Shown piece after piece: positions 11,991 to 59,652 of a DNA stretch of 64,000 nt. The stretch is from Armatimonadota bacterium. Lineage in GTDB: Bacteria; Armatimonadota; UBA5829. A program made the translations under genes and the position numbers. The notes under the pieces were generated by a model that saw only the letters and a list, made by a program, of their open reading frames with translations, searched no databases and was not told the origin of the DNA. The stretch spans positions 2,272,083-2,336,082 of the forward strand of contig JBMNES010000001.1 of NCBI GenBank assembly GCA_050948905.1. The letters run 5' to 3'. Each line of letters starts with the position of its first letter. Within the stretch, counting starts at the first letter, position 1.

Positions 11991-12231
11991 TATACTGTTT
12001 ATGTAGAATTATAACAACATAATAACAACACAATTAGCACGGCAATGATACACAACGTGAAGAAGCAGGATTCAATACCCCGTACAATTACTGGAATTTC
12101 TCCACAAAGTTGACAAACACTCTTGTGCATGATAATCTTCAGTAGGGTATGCTTGGCTGCCCGTACTATCGTTGGCGCGGGCCACCACCCCGGATACCTG
12201 CTCAACAACACTTTATAAGGAGGGAATTGAA

Positions 12232-12969
12232 ATGAGGAAGTTTGTATTGCTGCTTGTGCTGTGTCTTGCGTTTGCAGGCACCCAGGCGTTGGCAGCCGTC
12301 GTTTTCACAGAAGATTGGGAAAGTGGCGGAGCCGCTTGGACAGACTATGGTGCAGGTGGCAGCATAGTCAATGACTCTGTTGCTCAACTGTTGGGCGCCA
12401 ACAATCACGCCTTTAAGACCAACGCATCACCATCAAGCGCTGCGGGCGCGAAAACTGCCGTTTTGGCCAGTGAGACTGATAAAAACTGGACTGTCACCTG
12501 GGACTTCTATCAGGCATTGCACAGCAACACTCGCGAGTATTTGCAGCTTGGTAATGATGTGGGTGGGAGCTTGCAGCAGTTGATTGCACTTGGCACTTAC
12601 AACGCTACTTCTGGGACGATTTATCAGTTCAGAGTTGTGTCTGGAAGCGTTGGCTGGGCTGATACCACCATCAACCGCATTGGTGACGCTTGGGTTCACA
12701 TGAAAGTCGAGCAGATTTACACTGCTGGAGCTCCGTCAGCTACTCTGAACTTCTATGTCAACGATGTGCTTGGCGCTTCTGTCACGACCACAAAGGTGGT
12801 CGGCCTCAGCTATCTCAGGGCAGGATCGGGCCTTAGCAATGCGGATACTTCCGCTTATTTTGACAACATCGTTGTCAAGTCGGGCGCTGTTCCGGAGCCG
12901 GGCAGCATGCTTGCTTTGGGTACTGGCCTGGTTGGCCTCATCGGCATCATTCGCCGCAAGAGAGCCTAA
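12232..12969 (+). CDS. PEP-CTERM sorting-domain protein (predicted exosortase substrate)
   Basis: Signal peptide (MRKFVLLLVLCLAFAGTQALA). C-terminus VPEPGSMLALGTGLVGLIGIIRRKRA has the PEP motif, a TM helix and a basic tail. AGGAGG before the ATG. Confidence 0.8.
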   Translation: MRKFVLLLVLCLAFAGTQALAAVVFTEDWESGGAAWTDYGAGGSIVNDSVAQLLGANNHAFKTNASPSSAAGAKTAVLASETDKNWTVTWDFYQALHSNTREYLQLGNDVGGSLQQLIALGTYNATSGTIYQFRVVSGSVGWADTTINRIGDAWVHMKVEQIYTAGAPSATLNFYVNDVLGASVTTTKVVGLSYLRAGSGLSNADTSAYFDNIVVKSGAVPEPGSMLALGTGLVGLIGIIRRKRA

Positions 12970-12996
12970 ATGAATTAGTCGTTTTTATTTCAGAAT

Positions 12997-13028
12997 TGCC
13001 GCCGGTAACACAACCGGCGGCTTTTTTT
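12997..13028 (+). terminator. Rho-independent terminator of the PEP-CTERM gene
   Basis: gccgccggt-aacaca-accggcggc perfect 9-bp stem followed by ttttttt. Confidence 0.7.
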
Positions 13029-13032
13029 CGAT

Positions 13033-14050
13033 GTCCGCGATCCGAAGTTCGCTGTCCGATCATCCCGTCATTTCGAGCACCCACCCCCGTCATTTCGAGC
13101 GAAGCGAGAAATCCGCTTTTTCGATGTCCGAGGTCGGAGGTTAGAAGTCCGACCAAGTCTGGTCAGGCTTCCCACATTAGGCTACCATCCCATTATTTCT
13201 GGCTTTCGCCCCTTTCGCACTTTCGCGTTTATCCCTTCCCCGTTATCCTGCGCGCCAACTTTAATCGATGTGTGCGCCTACTTTAGTCATCCTGCGCCCC
13301 AAAACCTGTCATCCTGCGCGAAGTCGCAGGATCACGCCCTATTTAACTTACAACCTACCGAAAAAATCGTAGTGGCGGATCTCCGTCTCGGCCAATCCCT
13401 TCACAAAAGCCAATCGGTTGACGGTTATCGGCCGTCGGTTGTCAGTTCGCTCGTAACCCACCACCTATCAACAAAATCGTAGTGGCCGATCTCCGTCTCG
13501 GCCAATCCCTTCACAAAAGTCAATCGGTTGACGGTTATCGGTCGTCGGTTGTCGGTTCGCTCATAACACACCACCTATCAACAAAATCGTAGTGGCCGAT
13601 CTCCGTCTCGGCCAATCCCTTCACAAAAGTCAATCGGTTGACGGTTATCGGTCGTCGGTTGTCGGTTCGCTCATAACACACCACCTATCAACAAAATCGT
13701 AGTGGCCGACCTCCGTCTCGGCCAATCCCTTCGTCTATGCTGATTCCGGCCGGGATATAAACCTGCCCTACATTAAATAACCAGGGCGGCTTTTACCTCG
13801 AAGCCTGCCCTTGTAATTTCGAGCACCCATCCCGTCATTTCGAGCACCCACCCCCGTCATTTCGAGCGAAGCGAGAAATCCCCTTTTTCGATGTTCGAGG
13901 TCAGAGGTTAGAGGTCCGATCAAGTCTGGTCAGGCTTCCCACATTAGGCTACCATCCCATTATTTCTGGCTTTCGCCCCTTTCGCCCTTTCGCGTTTATC
14001 CCTTCTCTGCCACCCGTCGCGCAATCGCAGGATCATTCTAATAAAATATG
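13033..14050. repeat. Composite mosaic repeat locus: two 150-bp direct copies of 'module B' (13087-13236 and 13854-14004) flank tcatcctgcgc repeats and a 110-bp tandem array
   Basis: Direct reading. Module B is cgtcatttcgagcgaagcgagaaatccgctttttcgatgtccgaggtc...ctggctttcgcccctttcgc..gtttatccctt, preceded by one to three copies of cccgtcatttcgagcaccca. Confidence 0.8.
13361..13735. repeat. Tandem array of a 110-bp unit, about 3.4 copies; copies 2 and 3 are identical
   Basis: The unit is caaaatcgtagtggccgatctccgtctcggccaatcccttcacaaaagtcaatcggttgacggttatcggtcgtcggttgtcggttcgctcataacacaccacctatcaa. It contains the hairpin ggccga-tctccgtc-tcggcc and GTCGGTT-like heptamers. Confidence 0.85.
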
Positions 14051-14138
14051 GAATTTCGCGAACCTTCGTCTCTATTGATAGGTAATATTCCCTGATGTAT
14101 AATTAAACGTTCCTAGAGCTATGCGCAAGGAGGTTTGT

Positions 14139-14432
14139 ATGCCGCAGCTAACCCGAAATGAAATTGAAGGGGTTGCGAGCCTCAGTCGGATAAAATTATC
14201 CGAACCAGAAATAGATAAGCTCACCATCCAAATCAACGAAACGCTTGATAGCGTTCAAGAGTTGATCTCCCTGGACACTGATGGCGTAGAGCCGACCGTC
14301 CAGATCACTTCCGCAGTTAACGTATTCCGCAAAGACGAAATCACACCTTCTCTATCGGTCGACGACGCCACAGCCAATGGCCCACAGGTGGCGGAGAATT
14401 GTTTCGTGGTGCCCAGGGTGGTAGACACCTGA
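14139..14432 (+). CDS. gatC: Aspartyl/glutamyl-tRNA amidotransferase subunit C
   Basis: About 97 aa, MPQLTRNEIEGVASLSRIKLSEPEIDKL. AAGGAGG before the ATG. Followed by gatA and gatB. Confidence 0.85.
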   Translation: MPQLTRNEIEGVASLSRIKLSEPEIDKLTIQINETLDSVQELISLDTDGVEPTVQITSAVNVFRKDEITPSLSVDDATANGPQVAENCFVVPRVVDT

Positions 14433-14468
14433 TAAATTGCTGAACTTTTCTTACTTTACAGTCGAGGA

Positions 14469-15941
14469 ATGACGATGAAAGACAAATTGTATCAACTAAC
14501 GGCTCACGAAATAGCGGTTCTTATAAGAAGCAGGCAGGTCAGCGCCAGGGAGGTTGCCGAGAGTTTTATAGACCGTATCGACGCAGTCGACAAACAGGTT
14601 AATGCGTATGTCACCAAAACTCCGGAGCAGGCTTTCAAACAGGCGGATGCTGTGGATGAAGCGATAGGGCGCGGCGAGGAAGTTGGTATTCTTGCTGGCG
14701 TGCCGGGTGCGATCAAGGATAACGTCTGTACTAAAGGGGTTCTGACTACCTGTTCAAGCAAATCGTTGGCCAACTACATACCGGTATATGATGCGACAGT
14801 AATCGAACGACTCCACGCGGCAGGGTTCGCCCTTGTGGGAAAAACTAATCTCGACGAGTTCGCTATGGGCTCTTCGACGGAGACTTCTGCTTACTCTGTT
14901 TCACACAATCCGTGGGATCTAGAGTGCGTACCGGGAGGTTCCAGTGGAGGCTCTGCTGCGGCAGTGGCTGCAGACGAATGTGCGTTTGCGTTAGGTTCGG
15001 ATACGGCTGGATCTGCGCGTCAGCCGGCCTCGTTTTGCGGCGTTGTGGGACTGTTGCCGACCAACGGCAGGGTTTCGCGCTCTGGTGTTGTTCCTTTGGC
15101 TTCGTCGATGGATCAGGTCGGACCGATTACGAAGAACGTCACAGACAGCGCCCTCGTGCTTAGCGCCATTGCTGGCAAAGACCATCTGGATTCGCTCTCA
15201 ATTGATGCCGCAACTCTGGACTTTATGTCGGCTCTGGTCAACGACGTCAAAGGTCTGAAAATCGGCGTGGTTAAAGAATACTTTGAGATGGGAGTCGAGG
15301 CCGACGTAGAAAAAGCCGTGCGTGCCGCGATTGACGTATTAACTGGCTTGGGAGCAGAATGTCGCGAGGTATCGCTGCCCCATGCCCTCCACGGAATGGC
15401 TGCCTACACAATCATCTCGGCGGCTGAGAGCAGTTCGAATATGGCCAAAATCGACGGCGTAAGGTTCGGGTGTCGCAACAGACAGGCGGGAGACTGGGCG
15501 ACGATGTTCGATGAGACGCGCGGTGATGGCTTCGGAATCGAGGTCAAGCAGCGCATTATACTCGGCACTTACCTATTGTCGGCTGTTGCTTACGAGAAAT
15601 ATTTCGTAAAAGCCCAAAAGGTGCGTACGCTGGTAAGACGAGACATACAAAAGGCGTTTGAGGAGTTTGACGTGCTGGTTGGTCCTACCTCGCCGACTGC
15701 GGCATTCAAGATCGGCCGTCGCGCAGACGATGTGGTTGCGATGAAATACTCGGATGCTTGTACGGCGGGTGCAAACCTCGCTGGCGTGCCGTCTATTTCA
15801 GTCCCGTGCGGGTTTGTGAATGGCCTGCCGGTAGGTTTGCAGATCGTGGGCAAGGCACTTGATGAAGAAACGCTGCTGAGAGTCGCTTATACGTATGAGC
15901 AAAACACCGAATGGCATAAAAAGAAACCAGTTATCGGCTAA
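14469..15941 (+). CDS. gatA: Glutamyl-tRNA(Gln) amidotransferase subunit A (amidase family)
   Basis: Amidase signature region (GGSSGGSAAAVA) and conserved GatA N-terminus. The start may be at 14475. Confidence 0.9.
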   Translation: MTMKDKLYQLTAHEIAVLIRSRQVSAREVAESFIDRIDAVDKQVNAYVTKTPEQAFKQADAVDEAIGRGEEVGILAGVPGAIKDNVCTKGVLTTCSSKSLANYIPVYDATVIERLHAAGFALVGKTNLDEFAMGSSTETSAYSVSHNPWDLECVPGGSSGGSAAAVAADECAFALGSDTAGSARQPASFCGVVGLLPTNGRVSRSGVVPLASSMDQVGPITKNVTDSALVLSAIAGKDHLDSLSIDAATLDFMSALVNDVKGLKIGVVKEYFEMGVEADVEKAVRAAIDVLTGLGAECREVSLPHALHGMAAYTIISAAESSSNMAKIDGVRFGCRNRQAGDWATMFDETRGDGFGIEVKQRIILGTYLLSAVAYEKYFVKAQKVRTLVRRDIQKAFEEFDVLVGPTSPTAAFKIGRRADDVVAMKYSDACTAGANLAGVPSISVPCGFVNGLPVGLQIVGKALDEETLLRVAYTYEQNTEWHKKKPVIG

Positions 15942-15970
15942 ATGTGAAGTCCTTTAGGAGCCAGGCGAAG

Positions 15971-17422
15971 ATGATAGAATACGAACCAACAATAGGTATG
16001 GAAGTTCATGTGGAGTTGCAGACGAACACGAAGATGTTCTGCGGCTGTGAGGTCGCCTTTGGCGGCAATCCCAACACGAGATGTTGTCCGGTGTGTATGG
16101 GTCTGCTGGGGTCGCTGCCGGTGGTAAACGAGCGTGCTGTTGAGTTTATGACCAGAGCGGCTCTTGCATTGAATTGCACCATATCCCCGCATACCATCTT
16201 CTATCGCAAAAACTATTTCTATCCGGACCTGGCAAAAAACTACCAGGTGTCGCAGGGAGATGACCCGCTCGGTATGAACGGCTACGTCGAGATATTTGCC
16301 GGCGGCAAGAACAAGAAGATCGCCATTCGACGGGTCCACATGGAAGAGGATACGGGCAGACTGTTTCATGTGGAGGGCAACCGCAGCCTGGTGGACTTCA
16401 ACCGCAGCAGCATGGCTTTGATGGAGATTGTCACTATGAACCCACCGCCGCCAGGGCTGGATCAGATAGAATCAGCCGAGGAGGCCCGCGAATACCTCCA
16501 GCGACTCAGGCAGATTCTGCTCTACCTTGGGGTATCGGACTGTAAGATGGAGGAGGGGAGTATGCGATGCGAACCCAATATCTCCATCAAGCCAAAGGGC
16601 GCTGAGAAGCTGGGCACTAAGACTGAAATCAAGAACCTCAACAGCTTCAGAGCGGTATATATGGGCGTCGATTATGAGCTAAAGCGGCAGGAGAAGGTTT
16701 TGAGCGAGGGCGGCAAGGTGGTGCAGGAGACTCGCAGATGGGATGATGACCGCGGCGTTACATCGTCGATGAGATCAAAGGAGCACGCCGAGGAGTATCG
16801 CTACTTCCCTGATCCTGATCTGGTTCCGGTGGAGTTGAGCGAGGAGTATATAAACAAACTCAGAGCCGAACTCCCCGAACTGCCGATCTACCGGATCCGC
16901 AGGTTTGTCTCTGACTATGGCATATCAGAACAGGACGCGGAAGTATTGACCGACTCACGGGCGATTGCCGAGTTGTTTGACGAGTGTGCGAAACTGACCA
17001 CGGACCCGAAGGTCGTCGCGAACTGGCTGACAGGGGAGTTTTTAAGGCTGGTCAACGCCACCAACATTCCAATTGAGCAGGCGAAGATTACTCCAAAGAG
17101 CCTTGCTGAGCTGCTTGAGTTGATCGACAAGGGCACGATCAACCGCAACACAGGCAAGGCAGTCTTTGAGGAGATGTTCAACACGGGTAAAAGCGCGGCT
17201 GATATCGTTAAAGCGAAAGGCTTGGAGCAAGTCTCCGACACCGGGGCTATTGAATCCGCGATTGATGCAGTGTTGGCGGCCAACCCGCAGGAGGTCGAGC
17301 GATTCAAAGGCGGTGAAGAGAAACTGGCAGGCTGGTTCGTCGGCCAGGTAATGCGCGAGACAAAAGGCAAGGCCAACCCTGGAATAATAAATAGAATATT
17401 GAGCAAGAAGCTGAAGGGCTAA
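15971..17422 (+). CDS. gatB: Aspartyl/glutamyl-tRNA amidotransferase subunit B
   Basis: MIEYEPTIGMEVHVEL N-terminus typical of GatB. Start chosen at the internal ATG with AGGAG upstream; the ORF track extends 9 codons further. Confidence 0.9.
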   Translation: MIEYEPTIGMEVHVELQTNTKMFCGCEVAFGGNPNTRCCPVCMGLLGSLPVVNERAVEFMTRAALALNCTISPHTIFYRKNYFYPDLAKNYQVSQGDDPLGMNGYVEIFAGGKNKKIAIRRVHMEEDTGRLFHVEGNRSLVDFNRSSMALMEIVTMNPPPPGLDQIESAEEAREYLQRLRQILLYLGVSDCKMEEGSMRCEPNISIKPKGAEKLGTKTEIKNLNSFRAVYMGVDYELKRQEKVLSEGGKVVQETRRWDDDRGVTSSMRSKEHAEEYRYFPDPDLVPVELSEEYINKLRAELPELPIYRIRRFVSDYGISEQDAEVLTDSRAIAELFDECAKLTTDPKVVANWLTGEFLRLVNATNIPIEQAKITPKSLAELLELIDKGTINRNTGKAVFEEMFNTGKSAADIVKAKGLEQVSDTGAIESAIDAVLAANPQEVERFKGGEEKLAGWFVGQVMRETKGKANPGIINRILSKKLKG

Positions 17423-17435
17423 GCGACACCGACAA

Positions 17436-17709
17436 GCGTCATTCCAGACGGATATTTGTCGTTTTGAACAGCTATCTCGTCTTGTCGAACGCCTATCCCG
17501 TCATTTCGAGCGCAGCGAGAAATCTGCTTTTTTCGATGTCCGACATCCGTTGTCCGGCGTTCGAGTGGGCAGTGTAAGATATGCGAATTGCGTTGGGTAC
17601 GACAGGCGGCGATCTCCGAATCGCATCGAAGTACGACAGGCGGCGATCTCCGAATCGCGTCATAGTACGATAGGTGGCGATCTCCGAATCGCCACCTGAT
17701 CACCCATAG
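17436..17709. repeat. Mosaic repeat locus: module-B core with hairpin and T-run (17497-17535), plus three tandem units of about 35 bp each carrying a gcgatctccgaatcgc hairpin
   Basis: cccgtcatttcgagcgcagcgagaaatctgcttttttcgatgtccga. Then (agtacgacaggcggcgatctccgaatcgc)x3; the last copy has the full stem gtggcga/tcgccac. Confidence 0.8.
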
Positions 17710-17744
17710 AGAAGCCTGTTTCTCACAAACAAAGGAACATTAAA

Positions 17745-18995
17745 ATGAAGCAATACACTTGCGACGTACTGGTAAGCGGCGGCGGCCCGGGCGGTATATG
17801 CGCGGCGGTAAGCGCAGCTCGCAATGGCGCCGACACCATGCTCGTGGAGCGTTACGGCTACCTCGGCGGAATGGCCACCGCGGGCCTGGTTTTCCCGTTT
17901 ATGACTCGATACGCAGGCGGTGTGCAGATCATCGATGGGATATTTCAGGAGTTAATCGAGCGTCTGGACGCAAAGGGTGGCTACGGCGGGCCGGAGCGTT
18001 CGGCTATGTTCGACGCCGAGGCGTTCAAGTTGGTCGCCGACGAAATATGCCTGGAAAGCGGCGTAAAGTTGCTTCTTCACACGATGGTCGACGGCGTTGA
18101 GGTCGACAGTTCACTCATCAAGAAAGCCATAATCCACAACAAGTCCGGCGAAGGATCAATCTCCGCAAACATCTTCATAGATGGCACAGGGGACGCGGAT
18201 TTGGCGTATTTAGCCGGCGCTCCGTGCGAAAAGGGCCGTGCAAGCGATGGGCTGTCGCAGCCGATGACTCTAAATTTCCGTATGAGCGGGGTAGACAAGT
18301 CACGGATGCCTGATCGTGAGAAGATCACCGAACTCTACTTAAAGGCCCGGGAAGCCGGCCGAATCGACTGCCCTAGAAACGATGTTTTGTGGTTCCACAC
18401 TATGCGCGATGACGAGATTCACTTCAACACTACTCGTATCATCTGCCGTGATGCCACAAACGCCGAGGACCTTACCCAGGCCGAAATCGAGTCACGCAGG
18501 CAGGCTGCTCAATACGCTGATTGGCTTATCAGCGACATTCCCGGCTTCGAAAACGCGCACCTGCAGATGACCGCTGCTCAGATCGGGATTCGGGAGAGCA
18601 GGAGGGTGGTTGGCGAGTATATGTTAACTGCAGACGACCTTCTATCGACTCGAAACTTCGATGACTGCATAGCGCGCGGGTCATATCCTGTAGACATCCA
18701 CGACCCTGACGGCGGCGGCACAGTTCTGAAGCACCTCGCGCCTGGTGAGAGCTATCAGATTCCGTACAGGTCGCTGGTTCCTAAAAAAATCGACAACCTG
18801 TTGATAGCCGGCAGGCCGATATCCTCCACCCACGAGGCGCATTCCGCGATAAGGGTGATGCCGATAGCGGCGGCAATAGGCGAAGCAGCGGGGGCGGCTG
18901 CGGCGTTGTGTGTAAAAGATGGCGTGAGTCCGCGTCAGTTGAATACAAACAAACTGCGAGCCACACTCCTCGCCCAGGGCGCGAATTTGCCTTAG
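17745..18995 (+). CDS. FAD-dependent oxidoreductase (FAD_oxidored/GIDA-like family)
   Basis: VLVSGGGPGGICAAVSAARNGADTMLVERYGYLGGMATAGLV dinucleotide-binding motif. 416 aa. Confidence 0.75.
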   Translation: MKQYTCDVLVSGGGPGGICAAVSAARNGADTMLVERYGYLGGMATAGLVFPFMTRYAGGVQIIDGIFQELIERLDAKGGYGGPERSAMFDAEAFKLVADEICLESGVKLLLHTMVDGVEVDSSLIKKAIIHNKSGEGSISANIFIDGTGDADLAYLAGAPCEKGRASDGLSQPMTLNFRMSGVDKSRMPDREKITELYLKAREAGRIDCPRNDVLWFHTMRDDEIHFNTTRIICRDATNAEDLTQAEIESRRQAAQYADWLISDIPGFENAHLQMTAAQIGIRESRRVVGEYMLTADDLLSTRNFDDCIARGSYPVDIHDPDGGGTVLKHLAPGESYQIPYRSLVPKKIDNLLIAGRPISSTHEAHSAIRVMPIAAAIGEAAGAAAALCVKDGVSPRQLNTNKLRATLLAQGANLP

Positions 18996-19418
18996 CGGTT
19001 GACGGTTAGCGGTTGACGCTTGTCGGTTATCAGTTGTCGGTTGTCAGTTGTCAGTTCGCTCAGGACCTACCACCTATCAACAAAACCGTAGTGGCCGATC
19101 TCCGTCTCGGCCAATCCCTTCAAAGGTCAATCGGTTATCGGTTGTCGGTTGCCGGTTCGCTCAGGACCTACCACCTATGATGGGTGGCGATCTCCGAATC
19201 GCCACCCCACAACCCTTCCCCGTCATTTCGAACGTCACAATCCCCGTCATTTCGAACGTCACAATCCCCGTCATTTCGAGCGCAGCGAGAAATCTGCTTT
19301 TTCCGATGTCCGAGGTCTGCCATTCGAGGTTCGATACGATGTGCTTTTTCTGGCTTTCGCGTTCTTCGCTTCCAGACGAGGTGGCAATCCCTGGTCGAAT
19401 TGCCACCCCACAACCAAA
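18996..19418. repeat. Mosaic repeat locus: GTTGTCG heptamer microsatellite, 1.5 copies of the 110-bp unit with conserved-loop hairpins, two copies of ccccgtcatttcgaacgtcacaat, and a module-B core
   Basis: Direct reading. Hairpins are ggccgatctccgtctcggcc, ggtggcgatctccgaatcgccacc and gtggcaat..attgccac. The motif gccaccccacaacc occurs twice. Confidence 0.8.
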
Positions 19419-19421
19419 AAC

Positions 19422-21428
19422 CTACTTCAAATATTCCTCCACCTTCGCCGCCACGGCCTCTGGAGTCAGGCCGAATTTCTCGGCTAAAACGCTGGCAGGA
19501 GCCGATGCGCCAAATCGCTCCAGGCCAATAACCAGCCCTTCATCGCCGGTGTATTTGCACCAGCCAAACGGAACCGCTGCCTCCACTACAACACGCTTTT
19601 TAACATCTGGCGGGATGATGCTGTTTCTATACTCCACATCCTGTTCGTCGAACAGTTCCGTGCACGGCATTGAGACAACTCGAACCCCGATTCCCTTGCT
19701 ATTGAGCAGGTCATACGCCCCGATAGCCGTGCTCACCTCCGAACCCGTGGCTATTATCACCACATCCACTTTTTCGGAATCCCGGACGATATAGGCGCCT
19801 TTGCGCAGCCCCTTGGCCGTCTGCGGATCGTTGCTGCAGGCAGGCAGATTTTGCCTCGTCAGAGCCAGAATAGTCGGCCCCGTCTTGTTTTCAAGCGCTA
19901 CAGCCCATGCAACAACCGTCTCAGCGGCATCAGCCGGCCTGATTACCTTAACGTTCGGGATCGCTCTCAACGCGGCCAGGTGCTCGATAGGCTGATGAGT
20001 CGGGCCATCTTCACCGAGGAAAACGCTATCGTGAGTATATACCTGCACCAATTGCAGGTTCATTAGCCCCGCCAGACGAATCGACGGTCTCGCGTAATCC
20101 GAGAAGATCAAAAACGTCGATCCATACGGTATGAACCCGCCATACAGCGCCATTCCATTCACGGCCGACATCATCCCGTGTTCACGTACGCCGAAGTGGA
20201 GATTCCAGCCCAATCTGTCCTGTGCAGAAAAACTACCGGCATTTTTGATATTTGTCTTCGTGCTCGGGGCCAAATCAGCGGAGCCACCCCACAGCGAGGG
20301 CACCAGTTTGGCAATAACCGGAATCACCTCTCCAGACGCCGACCGCGTCGCCACCGGCTTCTCACAATTCACCAACGGTATAATCTCGTCCTCAATATTC
20401 TCCGGGACGTATTTGCTCATCATCTTGTCCCACAGCTCTGCCTGCTCCGGGAAATCCTTGCGATACTTCGCAAACATCTCATGCCATGCGTCATAGTCTG
20501 CCTTCAACTGCTCCGCTCGCCTGGCAAAAAGATCATAGACCTCCTGCGGCACATAAAATGCGGGTTCAAGCGGCCACCCGGCCAATTCCTTGGCGCCCTT
20601 GATCTCCTGTTCTCCCAGAGGCTCGCCGTGTGATGCCGACGTGTCCTGCTTGGTGGGAGCGCCCTTTGCGATGTGGGTGCGGGCTATGATTATGCTCGGC
20701 TTGTCCTTAACTGCCTTGGCTGCGGTCAATGCAAGATCAGCGGCTTTTCGGTCGTGACCATCAATATGCTGCACGTGCCAGCCGTAGGCCTCAAACCGCA
20801 TCGCCACATTATCCGAATACGCGAGATCGGTATCCCCTTCGATTGAGATATGATTATCGTCGTAAATCACGATCAGGCTGCCCAGCCCAAGGTGACCGGC
20901 AAGGCCGCACGATTCGTGGCTGACGCCCTCCTGCAGATCGCCATCGCTGGCTATCACAAATATATGGTTATCTACAACATCGAACCCCGGCTTATTAAAC
21001 AGTGCTGCCAGTCGGGTCTGAGCCATCGCCATTCCCACAGCGTTGGTGATTCCCTGTCCGAGCGGGCCTGTAGTCGTCTCGATGCCATACTCGATATCCT
21101 TCTCCGGATGGCCGGGGGTCTTGCTACACCATTGCCTGAAGTTCTTAATGTCGTCAAGAGACAGATCGTATCCCGCCAGGTGCAGCAGCGAATACAGCAG
21201 CATCGACCCGTGTCCTGCAGACAATATAAACCGATCCCTGTTGGGCCACTGGGTATCCTTCGGGTTATAGCGCAAATGTTTTGCCCACAGAGCGTAAGCA
21301 AAGTCCGCCGCGCCCATCGGCATGCCGGGATGTCCAGAGTTCGCCTTCTGAACAGCATCCACGGAAAGGAACTTGATGGTGTTGACTGCAAGATCATCCA
21401 ATCGAGAGTCAATAATAGGTTCTGACAT
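19422..21428 (-). CDS. tkt: Transketolase
   Basis: About 668 aa. N-terminal ..[33 protein letters not shown].. thiamine-diphosphate-binding motif. Start at the ATG with GGAGG upstream (MSEPIID). Confidence 0.9.
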
Positions 21429-34020: not shown

Positions 34021-34400
34021 TCTATTAACCCACCCACCTTCATTCAAATCTCCGAACCATCATTCCAACCCCGCACCGCCATTCCTCTCCTCACCATCAC
34101 TTCTCTCCCACCGCCATTCCCCTCTCCACCGGTCACTTCTCTTCCCACCTTCATTTCTCTCCCCCCACCGTCATTTCGAACGCAGTGAGAAATCCGCTTT
34201 TCCCTTCCCTCCCACCGCCCTTCTTCTCCTCCGTCCACTTCTCTTCTCAGCGTCGTTCCTCTCCTCCGGCCACTTCTCTTCCCACCGCCATTTCTCTCCC
34301 CCCTACCGTCATTTCGAACGAAGTGAGAAATCCGCTTTTTCCCTTCTCTACCTCAACAACCCATTTCCATCCGGTTTTCGTGTTCATCGTTTCCCTTCCC
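34021..34400. repeat. CT-rich degenerate tandem array of CACCG(T/C)CATTTC(TCTCC)-type units; it ends in two module-B cores, cgtcatttcgaacg(c/a)agtgagaaatccgcttttt
   Basis: Direct reading: ccaccttcattc.., ccatcattcc.., caccgccattcc.., caccatcacttctctcc.. and so on. The two hairpin-T cores are at about 34170-34203 and 34308-34342. Confidence 0.75.
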
Positions 34401-37039: not shown

Positions 37040-37270
37040 TGAAACCGTTCACGTTCGGGCAGGGTCAAATAAAACTGGTTGTGCCCGAATAACAGAATAT
37101 CACGATTACGCCCGGACATGACCAAATACTGCTGGTTATGTCCGGAGCTGACCAATTGCTGCACCTTCTCATAACCCGACGGCTATCTACAATAACGTAG
37201 TGTCCGATCTCCGTCTCGGACTTTCCCTTCTCCATCATCTTGCTCACGCCGGCAAACCACCCCACAACCC
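37040..37270. repeat. Repeat locus: two long hairpins with related loops (about 37060-37175), a conserved-loop hairpin gtccga-tctccgtc-tcggac (37201-37220), and a ccaccccacaacc tail
   Basis: ccggacatgacca-aatactgc-tggttatgtccgg forms a 13-bp stem with one G.U pair. cgggca...tgcccg is a second hairpin. Confidence 0.7.
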
Positions 37271-45580: not shown

Positions 45581-45810
45581 TCTCCGTCATTACGAACCCA
45601 TCCCCTTCATTCCGAGCACCCATTTACGCCTCATCCTCTGTCATTCCGAGCACCCTTTCTCGTCATTTCGAGCGAAGCGAGAAATCTGCTTTTTCGACGT
45701 TCGAAGTCAGATGTTCGAAGTCCGATCAAGCCTTCTTAGGCTCCCTAAATTACGGTACAATAACGTTATTTCTGGCTTTCGCTTCTTTCGCGCTTTCGCG
45801 TTTATCCCTT
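45581..45810. repeat. Mosaic repeat copy (cgtcattacgaaccca-type units plus module B) inserted between purS and purB within the pur gene cluster
   Basis: ..cgtcatttcgagcgaagcgagaaatctgctttttcgacgttcgaagtc...ctggctttcgcttctttcgcgctttcgcgtttatccctt. Ends adjacent to the purB stop at 45812. Confidence 0.8.
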
Positions 45811-45811
45811 C

Positions 45812-47110
45812 TCACTCAAGCCCCAATCTCTCAAACACCCTGTCCACATTCCTCAAATGGTGCGCCAGATCGAAGCAATCGTCCAATTCTTCCTTATTCA
45901 GCAGCCTCTGTACGTCTGCGTCGCCCTCCAGCGCCTGCCGGAACGAGACATCCTCATCCCAGCACCTGGCCGCATTTCTCTGACAAACCTTATAGCCTTC
46001 CTCGCGAGTCATCCCCTTCTGGATCAGCGCCAGCAGCACGTGCTCGCTAAAGACCAACTGGCCCATCATCTCCAGATTGCGCTTCATATTGTCCTGATTA
46101 ACCTCCAGCCTATCCAGCAGTTTCGCCAGAGACTGAAGCATAAAATCCACCGCAAAGAAGCTATCGGCGATTATGATCCTCTCAGCCGCCGAGTTGACCA
46201 GATCCCGCTCATGCCAGCTTACGATATTGTCCAAAGCGGGGTGTGCATTTGCCCGCACCACCCTGGCCAATCCGCATATAGTCTCAAATCTCCACGGGTT
46301 TCGCTTATGCGGCATAGCCGAGGAACCACGCTGTCCCGGCAGGAACATCTCCTGCACCTCGAGTATCTCCGTGCGCTGCAGGTTCCTCATTTCAGTCGCG
46401 ATGTTGTCGCAGGTCGAGGCCAGTATCGCCAGCCTGGCTATCACCGCAGCGTGCCTGTCGCGCTGGATAATCTGAGTCGAGATCGGAGCTGCCTGAAGCC
46501 CCAGCTTCTCGCAGACCATCTCTTCCTGATCCGGCCCGATATTGCCGAATACTCCCACCGCGCCGGATATTTTGCCGACGCTGATCTGCTCGCGGGCGTC
46601 TTTAATTCGTGCCAGATCCCGTTGAAGCTGAGAGTAATGCACAGCCATCTTAAAACCGAATGTGATCGGTTCTGCCTGCACGCCGTGGGTCCGGCCAATC
46701 ATCGGGGTCATTTTATGCGCTTTCGCCAGTCTCGCCACCACATCCAGCAGGTTTTCAATATCTTTGATAATAATATCGCAGGCCTGCCTCATTCGCAGCG
46801 CGGTCGCCGTGTCTTCGATGTCGTAGCTGGTAACGCCGTAGTGGACATATTTGCCCTCGTCGCCAAGGTTTTCCGTGACGCATTTGACGAAGGCTATCAG
46901 GTCGTGGTGGGTCTCTTTTTCAATTTCATCTATGCGCTCAACAGAGAACGTCGCCGACTTACGAATCTTCTCCGTCACTCCAGGCGGTATATTGCCGAAC
47001 TTCTCCTGTGCCTCACAAACCGCCAGCTCGACATCAAGCCAGCTCTGAAACTTGTTCTGCTCACTCCAAACGGCCTTCATCTCAGGCAGCGAATATCTCT
47101 CTATCATCAA
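45812..47110 (-). CDS. purB: Adenylosuccinate lyase
   Basis: 432 aa fumarate-lyase superfamily protein with a PurB-type C-terminal domain. TTG start. Confidence 0.9.
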   Translation of the reverse strand: MMIERYSLPEMKAVWSEQNKFQSWLDVELAVCEAQEKFGNIPPGVTEKIRKSATFSVERIDEIEKETHHDLIAFVKCVTENLGDEGKYVHYGVTSYDIEDTATALRMRQACDIIIKDIENLLDVVARLAKAHKMTPMIGRTHGVQAEPITFGFKMAVHYSQLQRDLARIKDAREQISVGKISGAVGVFGNIGPDQEEMVCEKLGLQAAPISTQIIQRDRHAAVIARLAILASTCDNIATEMRNLQRTEILEVQEMFLPGQRGSSAMPHKRNPWRFETICGLARVVRANAHPALDNIVSWHERDLVNSAAERIIIADSFFAVDFMLQSLAKLLDRLEVNQDNMKRNLEMMGQLVFSEHVLLALIQKGMTREEGYKVCQRNAARCWDEDVSFRQALEGDADVQRLLNKEELDDCFDLAHHLRNVDRVFERLGLE

Positions 47111-59275: not shown

Positions 59276-59331
59276 CAAAAAAGGCTCCCCAGTCCTGGCG
59301 GACTGGGGAGGAGAAAAGAGGGTGGGAAGGT
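59276..59331 (-). ncRNA. Candidate small RNA 1 (C/U-rich, ends in a canonical intrinsic terminator), minus strand
   Basis: Minus-strand sequence ..gcaaaccuucccacccucuuuucuccuccccaguccgccaggacuggggagccuuuuuu. An 11-bp perfect stem plus U6. A tatatat -10-like box lies just upstream. No minus-strand CDS exists for it to terminate. Confidence 0.35.
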
Positions 59332-59430
59332 TTGCTACTATATATACGACACAACGTTTGGGAATGTTCCACTTTCTTGAAAAAAAGATACTAATGAATC
59401 AGAAAAGTGCATAACGAACAACAAAGACAC

Positions 59431-59486
59431 AAAAAAGCTCCCCAGCCCTGGCGGACTGGGGAGGAGAAAAGAGGGTGGGAAGGTTT
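59431..59486 (-). ncRNA. Candidate small RNA 2, paralogous tandem copy of sRNA 1 (one stem mismatch)
   Basis: Second copy of the same ~75-bp element about 155 bp downstream: aaaaaagctccccagccctggcggactggggaggagaaaagagggtgggaaggtttgctattatatatacgac. Confidence 0.3.
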
Positions 59487-59652
59487 GCTATTATATATAC
59501 GACGCAGCTAATTGGTTCGTTCCACCCATTTTCAGAAAATAATTTGCCGATGATTTATCCACGTGGTAGAATTGAGAGTAGCCGAGAGGCAGTCCACTTG
59601 CATTGAAGTGGATATCAATCGAACAGACACCACACGTCAAAGGACTTATATA

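Follow-up and report, generated by a model that had tools for sequence, protein, structure and literature searches.

Two superfamilies of tagged repetitive extragenic palindromes (REPs), GTAG and CGTC, have been defined (PMC3733652, Di Nocera et al. 2013). The CGTC REPs have a CGTC or TGTC (CCTC) tag, a stem of 8-9 bp that opens with A-T then T-A, a loop of 4-5 nt and a 3-nt unpaired tail (consensus CCA); they are found mostly as inverted dimers, without a dedicated transposase, and include the dRS3 elements of Neisseria, which are clustered in mosaic intergenic regions (PMC3733652). Hairpin repeats, named NTS in Neisseria and Ssn-related motifs (SRMs) generally, were reported to flank small GIY-YIG proteins of the Ssn family (cd10448) (PMC11893778, Chenal et al. 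2025). SsnA binds the hairpin and cuts single-stranded DNA (ssDNA) only, on one strand and a few nucleotides upstream; cutting depends critically on the three upstream nucleotides and binding on the C after the palindrome, and the Ssn system lowers the integration of NTS-bearing transforming DNA about 5-fold (PMC11893778). Here we analysed a 64,000-nt stretch of contig JBMNES010000001.1 (assembly GCA_050948905.1), called the window throughout, and in particular a repeat mosaic that lies in it between a PEP-CTERM gene and gatC.

This locus is best explained as a mosaic like those built of REPs and bacterial interspersed mosaic elements (BIMEs), closest to the intergenic mosaics of Neisseria and containing two strand-specific classes of hairpin repeat, H1 and H2, of which H1 belongs to the SRM class. 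We give this explanation a probability of about 70%. The mosaic is composed of the two hairpin classes, lineage-specific filler modules and local tandem duplications. A preliminary description of the locus had proposed a BIME/REP-type mosaic and left the family unnamed. The tagged hairpins, their compensatory stem changes, their interleaving with conserved motifs and their intergenic positions between housekeeping genes agree with that proposal, and the published families support naming H1 a CGTC-tagged REP or SRM and H2 a GTAG-tagged REP (PMC3733652, PMC11893778). The pairing of hairpins with GIY-YIG genes has already been published (PMC11893778) and this kind of mosaic is known; the features of the variant described below are new in the literature searched.

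Two tagged hairpins, H1 and H2

H1 is a CGTC-tagged REP of the SRM class. It reads CGTC-ATTTCGAGC-GNA-GCGAGAAAT-C and has seven copies in the window. The 25-nt core (GTCATTTCGARCGNAGYGAGAAATC) matched the window seven times with zero mismatches, against 0.00 matches expected from 100 shuffles, and the tag, the two G.A pairs and the C that follows the stem are intact in all seven cores. One full copy of a second type, TGTC-ATCCTGCG-CGAAGT-CGCAGGAT-C, is in the window, and this type is also present in two other loci (L003 and L025). When the two types are taken together, the GTC 5' of the palindrome and the C directly after it are found in 8/8 window hairpins, with seven CGTC tags and one TGTC tag. 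The stems of both types open with A-T and T-A as in CGTC REPs, that of H1 with two non-Watson-Crick G.A positions. The loop of H1 is the 3-nt GNA, or 5 nt when the closing C-G is counted as loop, and the 3-nt tail is CCG, CTG or CCC in the window, whereas elsewhere CTC, CTT and CTG are seen.

Comparison of H1-type hairpins across loci revealed strong constraint on the fold. Stem pairing was complete at the three free positions in 236 of 243 candidates collected with a relaxed anchor, with at least six compensatory variants (TTC/GAA, TCT/AGA, TCC/GGA, CCT/AGG, CTC/GAG and CCC/GGG), and the next stem pair covaries as well (G-C in 134, A-T in 86 and C-G in 10). The internal 5'-GA/3'-AG mismatch pair was kept in 234 of 236 hairpins. 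When the apex was left unconstrained, it was C-GNA-G in 240 of 256 seven-nucleotide apexes, a figure that is partly biased by the pattern used for fetching the loci. The base before GTC was T in 185 and C in 44 of the 236 hairpins of all loci, that is, T or C in 229.

Among DNA minihairpins, d(C-GNA-G) is a classic example of unusual stability, and tandem G.A pairs of the sheared type are likewise stable in DNA. The combination of the two argues for a hairpin formed by DNA rather than by RNA. The case for the H1 hairpin is made by the covariation together with the literature on sheared G.A pairs and GNA minihairpins. All seven copies in the window are followed, 4-5 nt downstream, by 4-6 T residues; in relatives, this T-run is one half of the inner palindrome of inverted dimers (TGCTTTT...AAAAGCA).

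The H1 variant is absent from the supplements of Di Nocera et al. (PMC3733652). The pruning used there dropped repeats with more than one mismatch (PMC3733652), by which the G.A hairpins of H1 would be lost. A literature search with the repeat sequences as strings returned irrelevant primer matches only. The published SRM search string, HGTCWYN(0-2)YYVSBRHN(0-5)WNVSBRGN(0-2)RNCYNB, had 20 matches in 1.7 Mb of DNA that holds more than 330 hairpins with the tandem G.A pairs (the GA/GA subtype); H1 is missed because its G.A positions do not fit the string. Hairpins of the GA/GA subtype thus form a large group that the published operational definition of SRMs does not cover. Since this subtype is invisible to the search string, the published counts of such sites, and likewise those of nuclease genes 'without' sites, are probably underestimates.

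H2 is a GTAG-tagged REP. It reads GTAG-TGGCCGA-TCTCCGTC-TCGGCCA, or in general form GTAG-TG(G/T)CCGA-TCTCCGTC-TCGG(C/A)CA, and has six copies in the window, four of them inside a 110-bp tandem array. The 8-nt loop and the tag are kept while the stems change in compensatory fashion, with variants such as TGGCTGG/CCAGCCA and TGGCGGC/GCCGCCA. A 7-bp stem with the tag GTAG is present in 52 copies; in 38 more, in which only 6 bp are paired, the same tag reads TAGT. In DNA folding, H2 and the other non-H1 hairpins gave z values of -2.5 to -5.5 (-4.4 for the hairpin of the 110-bp array). Altogether, the window has 8 CGTC/TGTC-tagged and 6 GTAG-tagged hairpins, all of them intergenic.

H2 was also found in 87 metagenome stretches from a few sample series. 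In these stretches it recurs in mosaics together with single or dimeric H1 and with a paralogous hairpin, GTAG-TGACTGG-CCTCTGTC-CCAGTCA, including tandem arrays with periods of 59, 77 and 85 nt. We infer that H2 is of the kind mobilised by RAYT tyrosine transposases. One candidate RAYT gene (locus L202, 3975-4442) was rejected: the tblastn match was weak, and the open reading frame (ORF) is degenerate and Y1/RAYT-like, on a G+C-rich contig with its own unrelated palindromes (TTCGGGGC...GCCCCGAA). It is a separate REPtron-like unit, unrelated to H2.

Nuclease linkage, spread and half-hairpin stacks

In other genomes, H1-type hairpins are linked to small GIY-YIG nuclease genes. Among the GIY-YIG genes in H1-centred loci, 3/4 abut H1 and 4/4 lie between inverted H1-type hairpins. 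Starting from the protein instead, 4446 PF01541 homologues were found. In the best 120 of these, hairpins are translated as protein extensions, 46 at the C-terminus in forward orientation, 22 in reverse and 7 at the N-terminus (examples are CHSDQREES, VIPNEVRNL, VISTEGRNP and DFSLRSK*). In 8/8 genomic contexts fetched for three homologues, GA/GA hairpins were present on both sides of the gene, 28-49 nt ahead of the start codon and either at the stop codon or beyond it. When the hairpin-first and protein-first searches are combined, 12/12 small GIY-YIG genes examined are flanked by H1-type hairpins, and in a Nitrospira locus (L218) the flanking hairpin is the exact 25-mer of the window.

The H1-flanked proteins are about 98 aa long with GIY-YIG (PF01541) as their only domain, and their Y-Y-E spacing of 11 and 58 equals that of SsnA (Y6/Y17/E64). 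These features support, indirectly, the view that the proteins may be relatives of SsnA and of CDD family cd10448.

Several other observations were made on these genes. In locus L098, an SRM-like hairpin (GTTTATTTCGAGCGACGCGAGAAAAC, 380-410) lies inside the GIY-YIG gene itself, where it adds about 13 codons between conserved blocks. In L218 (2557-5126) and L220-L223 (87-5543), a hairpin-flanked GIY-YIG gene is located within a type I restriction-modification operon, between hsdR and hsdS; the GIY-YIG genes in this setting, in Nitrospira and Sulfuricella-like genomes, adjoin toxin-antitoxin genes. L218 also has a canonical NTS-like hairpin (CGTCATTCCCGTGAAAGCGGGAATCCAG, 1937-1964) that matches the SRM string, 1 kb upstream of its GA/GA-flanked GIY-YIG gene, so that a single genome carries the two subtypes side by side.

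The modules also occur beyond the window. At least 119 stretches of a one-genome-per-species collection contained the exact H1 25-mer, and they are spread over more than 15 phyla, Gram-positive phyla included. The hosts belong to Bacteroidota, Chloroflexota, Clostridia, several proteobacterial classes, Planctomycetota, Armatimonadota, Hydrogenedentota, Acidobacteriota, Nitrospirota, Omnitrophica, Actinomycetota and others. The 25-mer was also found in 10 IMG/VR viral contigs (L121-L130), once as an inverted pair (L130), and viral carriage is a possible route for its spread across phyla. The additional modules of the window are shared only with one metagenome-assembled genome (MAG), CAZBSI01 (L003, L016, L025 and L116), and in part with Armatimonadota MAGs; the nearest named relatives of the GatB protein are from Armatimonadota MAGs as well, at 71-75% identity.

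In most genomes, an imperfect inverted copy follows the H1 hairpin after 10-150 nt. A partner inverted with the tags outward was found within 150 nt for 38/88 hairpins of the lineage and 104/248 of other genomes (about 42% outside the window), against 0/8 in the window. No match to an insertion sequence (IS) end and no associated transposase was found. Clustering of ORFs from 119 and then 80-88 loci returned sensor kinases, ABC ATPases and orthologous housekeeping genes as the recurrent neighbours, and no transposase. Many short contigs begin or end exactly inside an H1 or H2 hairpin (L017, L029, L054, L131, L146, L148 and others). Assemblies therefore break at these repeats, and repeat counts from MAGs are underestimates.

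A further feature of the family is the polar stacking of half-hairpins. A half-unit combines the tag and the 5' arm with 6-10 nt of filler that is specific to the locus. Half-units are stacked 5' of full hairpins with a period of 21-24 nt and in the same orientation as the full hairpin. Within 80 nt of 274 full hairpins, 27 half-units were upstream and 2 downstream, at 17 loci from many phyla. Stacks of half-units also follow nuclease genes, for example at P0002, where the translation reads CHSDPCSV-CHSDPCSL-CHSDQREES. Tandem or half sites are not mentioned in the Ssn paper (PMC11893778), and no later paper was found in the literature searched.

The stacks might be footprints of GIY-YIG nucleases that spread their own sites, the nuclease and hairpin forming a self-propagating 'REPtron' with the one-stranded, unpaired copies of the window among its products. 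Such spreading would proceed by a strand-specific nick-and-copy cycle on ssDNA, starting at the Ssn cut site and aborting at the hairpin apex. If this were true, the REPtron would use a nuclease chemistry that is not known to drive transposition. We offer this as a speculative proposal and consider it doubtful.

Organisation of the locus and of the other five sites

The locus was first described as about 1 kb of non-coding repeat between the terminator of the PEP-CTERM gene and gatC, and our analyses of genes, terminators and ORFs bear this out. The PEP-CTERM gene (12172-12969, PF07589) is followed by an intrinsic terminator at 12998-13021, which was found in a terminator scan as a 9-pair hairpin and a T-run and which marks the left edge of the repeat locus. 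The non-coding mosaic extends from 13024 to 14022 and gatC starts near 14139; the spacer between the two genes, about 1.1 kb, contains no credible ORF. A strong sigma-70-like promoter match (TTGATA-17-TATAAT, 11/12) was seen at 14075-14103. Because this match lies between the repeats and gatC, gatCAB is probably transcribed independently of the PEP-CTERM gene. The terminator and the repeat modules of the six sites are all on the + strand.

The mosaic opens with a 39-nt module (TTTTTCGATGTCCG..., family D8) at 13024-13062, which was identified by a repeat finder. D8 has six copies in the window (13024, 13117, 13884, 17529, 19299 and 45690), and a 39-nt module of D8 type is found 3' of each H1 hairpin. 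The first copy of a larger unit, module B, follows at 13061-13255 and is made up of a half-unit (13064-13087), an H1 hairpin (13088-13115), a D8 module and a tail rich in CTTTCGC. This H1 has a CGTC tag, ATTTCGAGC, GAA, GCGAGAAAT and a CCG tail, with the tandem G.A/A.G mismatch and the C-GNA-G apex. The second copy (13828-14022, H1 at 13855-13882) is 93% identical to the first. The preliminary description was right about two copies of module B at this locus, and its length of 150 bp has to be revised to 195 nt for each; a third copy, with 77% identity, lies at 45634-45828. As also noted there, each copy is preceded by tandem units, one truncated unit before copy 1 and two before copy 2. The latter (13809-13854), located 5' of the next H1, consist of tag, 5' arm and ACCCAYCC filler with a period of 21-22 nt, and Tandem Repeats Finder (TRF) reported them as an array of 22-bp period (13816-13867, 2.4 copies).

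The second CGTC/TGTC hairpin family occupies 13243-13335, with truncated 5' units at 13243 and 13287 and the full hairpin at 13307-13332. Three copies of tcatcctgcgc had been listed here. Two are exact (13287 and 13309), and the one at 13243 reads TTATCCTGCGC instead. The hairpin with an 8-bp stem, ATCCTGCG-CGAAGT-CGCAGGAT at 13310-13331, was recovered by DNA folding (-8.0 kcal/mol, z = -2.9).

The 110-bp tandem array was found by TRF at 13363-13732 (3.4 copies, 97% matches, score 691). Each unit is composed of a GTAG-tagged hairpin, a tract of CGGTTGT heptamers and CACCACCTATCAAC, and the units are mutually 94-100% identical. The GTAG hairpins are at 13369 (imperfect), 13479-13504, 13589-13614 and 13699-13724. 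An independent assembly of this locus (L001) is 99.7-99.97% identical to the window and has exactly one 110-bp unit fewer (3177-3455 in L001 against 13454-13732 in the window). This difference is either a real polymorphism of the population or a collapse of the array in assembly.

Counting the locus above as site 1, repeats recur at the five other intergenic sites named in the preliminary description. Site 2, between gatB and a FAD oxidoreductase gene, contains degenerate half-units, H1 (17499-17526) and a D8 module (17466-17567 in total), followed by a 34-bp tandem array of 2.8 copies (D11, 17597-17692), in which each unit has a hairpin with the conserved loop GATCTCCGAATC, an H2 variant. Site 3 (18996-19418), between convergent genes, contains heptamer tracts, a GTAG hairpin (19088-19113), H1 (19269-19296) and D8 and D9 modules. 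It also has a loop-related variant of H2, the hairpin GGTGGCGA-TCTCCGAA-TCGCCACC at 19182-19207, and two 24-nt half-units (19217-19264) that are 100% identical; DNA folding at this site gave -11.9 kcal/mol with a z of -5.5. At site 4 (34049-34343), between divergent genes, long runs of degenerate, pyrimidine-rich units of 17-18/35 nt (D5 and D10) each end in an H1 hairpin (34169-34196 and 34307-34334), both of the A-T covariant type.

Site 5 (37168-37230), upstream of queC, is a partial homologue of the 110-bp unit (D4). Its hairpin, GTAG-TGTCCGA-TCTCCGTC-TCGGACT (fold z -2.5), differs by a compensatory change of G-C to T-A in the stem. Just 5' of it, at 37040-37160, are two hairpins of about 36 nt with similar loops (TTCGGGCA...TGCCCGAA and CCGGACAT...ATGTCCGG); these are a further small repeat type, absent from the other five sites. 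Site 6 (45585-45828) lies between purB and purQ, both on the - strand, and is antisense to local transcription. It has half-units at 45585 and 45639, H1 at 45661-45688 and the third copy of module B.

The six sites thus present H1, H2, D8, D9, heptamer tracts and half-units in differing orders, with the 39-nt TTTTTCGATGTCCG... module, the CTTTCGC repeats and the CGGTTGT tracts as filler. The flanking genes are all housekeeping genes, namely gatCAB and those for the FAD oxidoreductase, transketolase, a DUF6785 protein, an indigoidine synthase A-like protein, queC, purQ and purB. Every copy of every module is on the + strand, a point absent from the preliminary description, and the repeat search found no inverted copy of any module in the window. 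The strands of the neighbouring genes are +/+, +/+, +/-, -/+, +/+ and -/- for the six sites in order, which indicates that the orientation of the repeats is independent of transcription. GC skew tracks the coding strand in the window and was uninformative as a guide to replication direction.

Apart from these sites, two tandem units of about 95 nt with 87% identity were seen at 59278-59372 and 59431-59525, each with a hairpin, CTCCCCAG-N10-CTGGGGAG, beside an A/T run. When read on the - strand, each resembles a short promoter-to-terminator unit. Rfam returned for them only sub-threshold matches to NsiR1 (21.7 and 18.2 bits; gathering score 39). The two units are possible small-RNA genes in tandem.

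Explanations and comparison with known systems

By analogy with Neisseria SsnA and NTS, H1 would fold when the + strand becomes single-stranded. A cognate nuclease of Ssn type, encoded elsewhere in the genome, would then bind the hairpin and nick a few nucleotides 5' of the tag, and recognition would depend on the upstream GTC triplet and on the C just after the palindrome. The copies in the window would be non-autonomous sites. Their effect would be on transactions of ssDNA, such as the integration of incoming DNA, local recombination and the spread of the repeats, rather than on the products of the flanking genes. The orientation on one strand may reflect ssDNA targeting linked to replication, as in IS200/IS605. 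The locus itself would grow by gain and loss of whole units, as in the 110-bp array, and by polar stacking of truncated units 5' of a full hairpin.

Several results weigh against this explanation of the mosaic. The published SRM string had no match in the window, while it matched the NTS control, and it matched none of the hairpins flanking the GIY-YIG genes examined. Nearest-neighbour DNA folding did not predict H1 (z -0.9 and +0.7), because the energy model ignores the sheared G.A and GNA features, and the bias in the apex count given above belongs here too. Neither the window nor about 0.7 Mb of DNA from the related lineage contained an ssn-type gene, and tblastn with an E. coli YafM probe revealed no RAYT gene in the same DNA; these absences are uninformative because one copy per genome is expected. 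The cognate nuclease in this organism is accordingly assumed. For the H1-flanked GIY-YIG proteins, NCBIfam gave no specific model and only a sub-threshold GIY-YIG match, and no relative was found in PDB. In addition, the window copies have no inverted partners (0/8 against about 42%), and may be decayed, inactive remnants.

The main rival is a role at the RNA level, in which H1 and its T-run would act as a terminator or a stabiliser of 3' ends and the mosaic would be a stack of 3'-untranslated elements. The 4-6 T residues after all seven H1 copies fit such a role, as does the position of sites 1, 2 and 3 just downstream of + strand genes in sense orientation, and the predicted minimum-energy fold is an alternative hairpin, AAGCG-N7-CGCTT, followed by the T-run. 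Moreover, most REPs are located 3' of genes, and it has been proposed that they contribute to termination and to the stability of mRNA (PMC3733652). However, the orientation of the repeats does not track transcription: those of site 6 run antisense to the - strand genes on either side, the genes around site 4 diverge, and gatC lies downstream of the second H1 of site 1. The terminator scan called only the terminator of the PEP-CTERM gene. The T-run is half of a dimer palindrome in relatives, and would therefore be inherited rather than selected for termination, and a C-G-closed GNA triloop with tandem G.A pairs is typical of DNA minihairpins. RNA is not a ligand of SsnA (PMC11893778). Rfam matches at gathering score in the window were limited to two tRNAs, with none even at E<=1 in 12900-19500. 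We consider a role at the RNA level unlikely.

Alternatively, the locus could be inert debris, that is, decayed hairpin relics and slippage-prone DNA of low complexity tolerated in the spacer. The half-units at sites 2 and 4 are degenerate, the hairpins have no inverted partners, no enzyme gene is in view and the copy number varies between assemblies, all of which fit this reading. Against this, 7/7 H1 cores are without mismatch and keep the tag, both G.A pairs and the trailing C, and the changes in the stems are compensatory. The identical half-units at 19217-19264 and the 94-100% identity of the 110-bp units point to recent events. Inert debris is thus very unlikely. Miniature inverted-repeat transposable elements (MITEs), which the preliminary description had also considered, or remnants of classical IS, moved by a DDE-type transposase through terminal inverted repeats, are extremely improbable: about 42% of H1-type hairpins elsewhere are in inverted pairs 10-150 nt apart and several short contigs end in a hairpin, but in the window all copies are direct, without terminal inverted repeats, inverted partners or target-site duplications, the flanking genes are housekeeping genes, and the only recurrent neighbour of the repeats elsewhere is the GIY-YIG nuclease gene rather than a transposase.

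With H1 read as a GA/GA-subtype SRM, the analysis names a repeat that is scattered through the intergenic DNA of very many uncultured bacteria and that also turns up in their spurious small ORFs. It extends the pairing of Ssn nuclease and hairpin to a structurally distinct subtype with tandem G.A pairs and a GNA apex. The arrays of half-hairpins and the orientation on one strand are testable clues to how the sites multiply. The subtype also provides candidate pairs of nuclease and site for ssDNA tools, and accounts for breaks and copy-number errors in assemblies.

Among known systems, IS200/IS605 elements resemble H1 in having subterminal DNA hairpins that are recognised on one strand as ssDNA, with strand-biased, replication-linked insertion expected. 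They differ from it in their enzyme, which is a HUH/Y1 transposase whereas that associated with H1 is a GIY-YIG nuclease, and the copies in the window carry no gene. The REP, BIME and REPIN elements of E. coli and Pseudomonas resemble H2 in the GTAG tag, in a short stem that is rich in G+C and varies by compensatory changes, and in a conserved loop. As in BIMEs, the REP units belong to composite arrays in intergenic DNA, where they are combined with other motifs and amplified in tandem. REPs in BIMEs and REPINs, in contrast, alternate in orientation or form inverted doublets, whereas the copies in the window are all direct, with four H2 head-to-tail. Unlike in REP/RAYT systems, no RAYT gene was found, and the GTAG and CGTC tag classes are interleaved in one locus.

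The closest system is that of NTS/dRS3 and SsnA in Neisseria. No ssn gene was seen in the examined DNA of the organism of the window, and all H1 copies there are single, co-oriented and on the + strand, unlike published SRMs. Both H1 and NTS/dRS3 are strand-specific elements with an HGTC tag 5' of the hairpin, and in both the stem opens with A-T then T-A and closes with ...AT, followed by C. In both, hairpins bracket small single-domain GIY-YIG genes, and many intergenic copies are found in mosaics with other repeats. NTS has a fully paired ATTCCCGC stem and a 4-nt loop, whereas in H1 the tandem G.A/A.G mismatch is nearly invariant and the apex is a 3-nt GNA. H1 also has polar half-hairpin arrays on its 5' side, and occurs here in a probable member of Armatimonadota and otherwise across many phyla.

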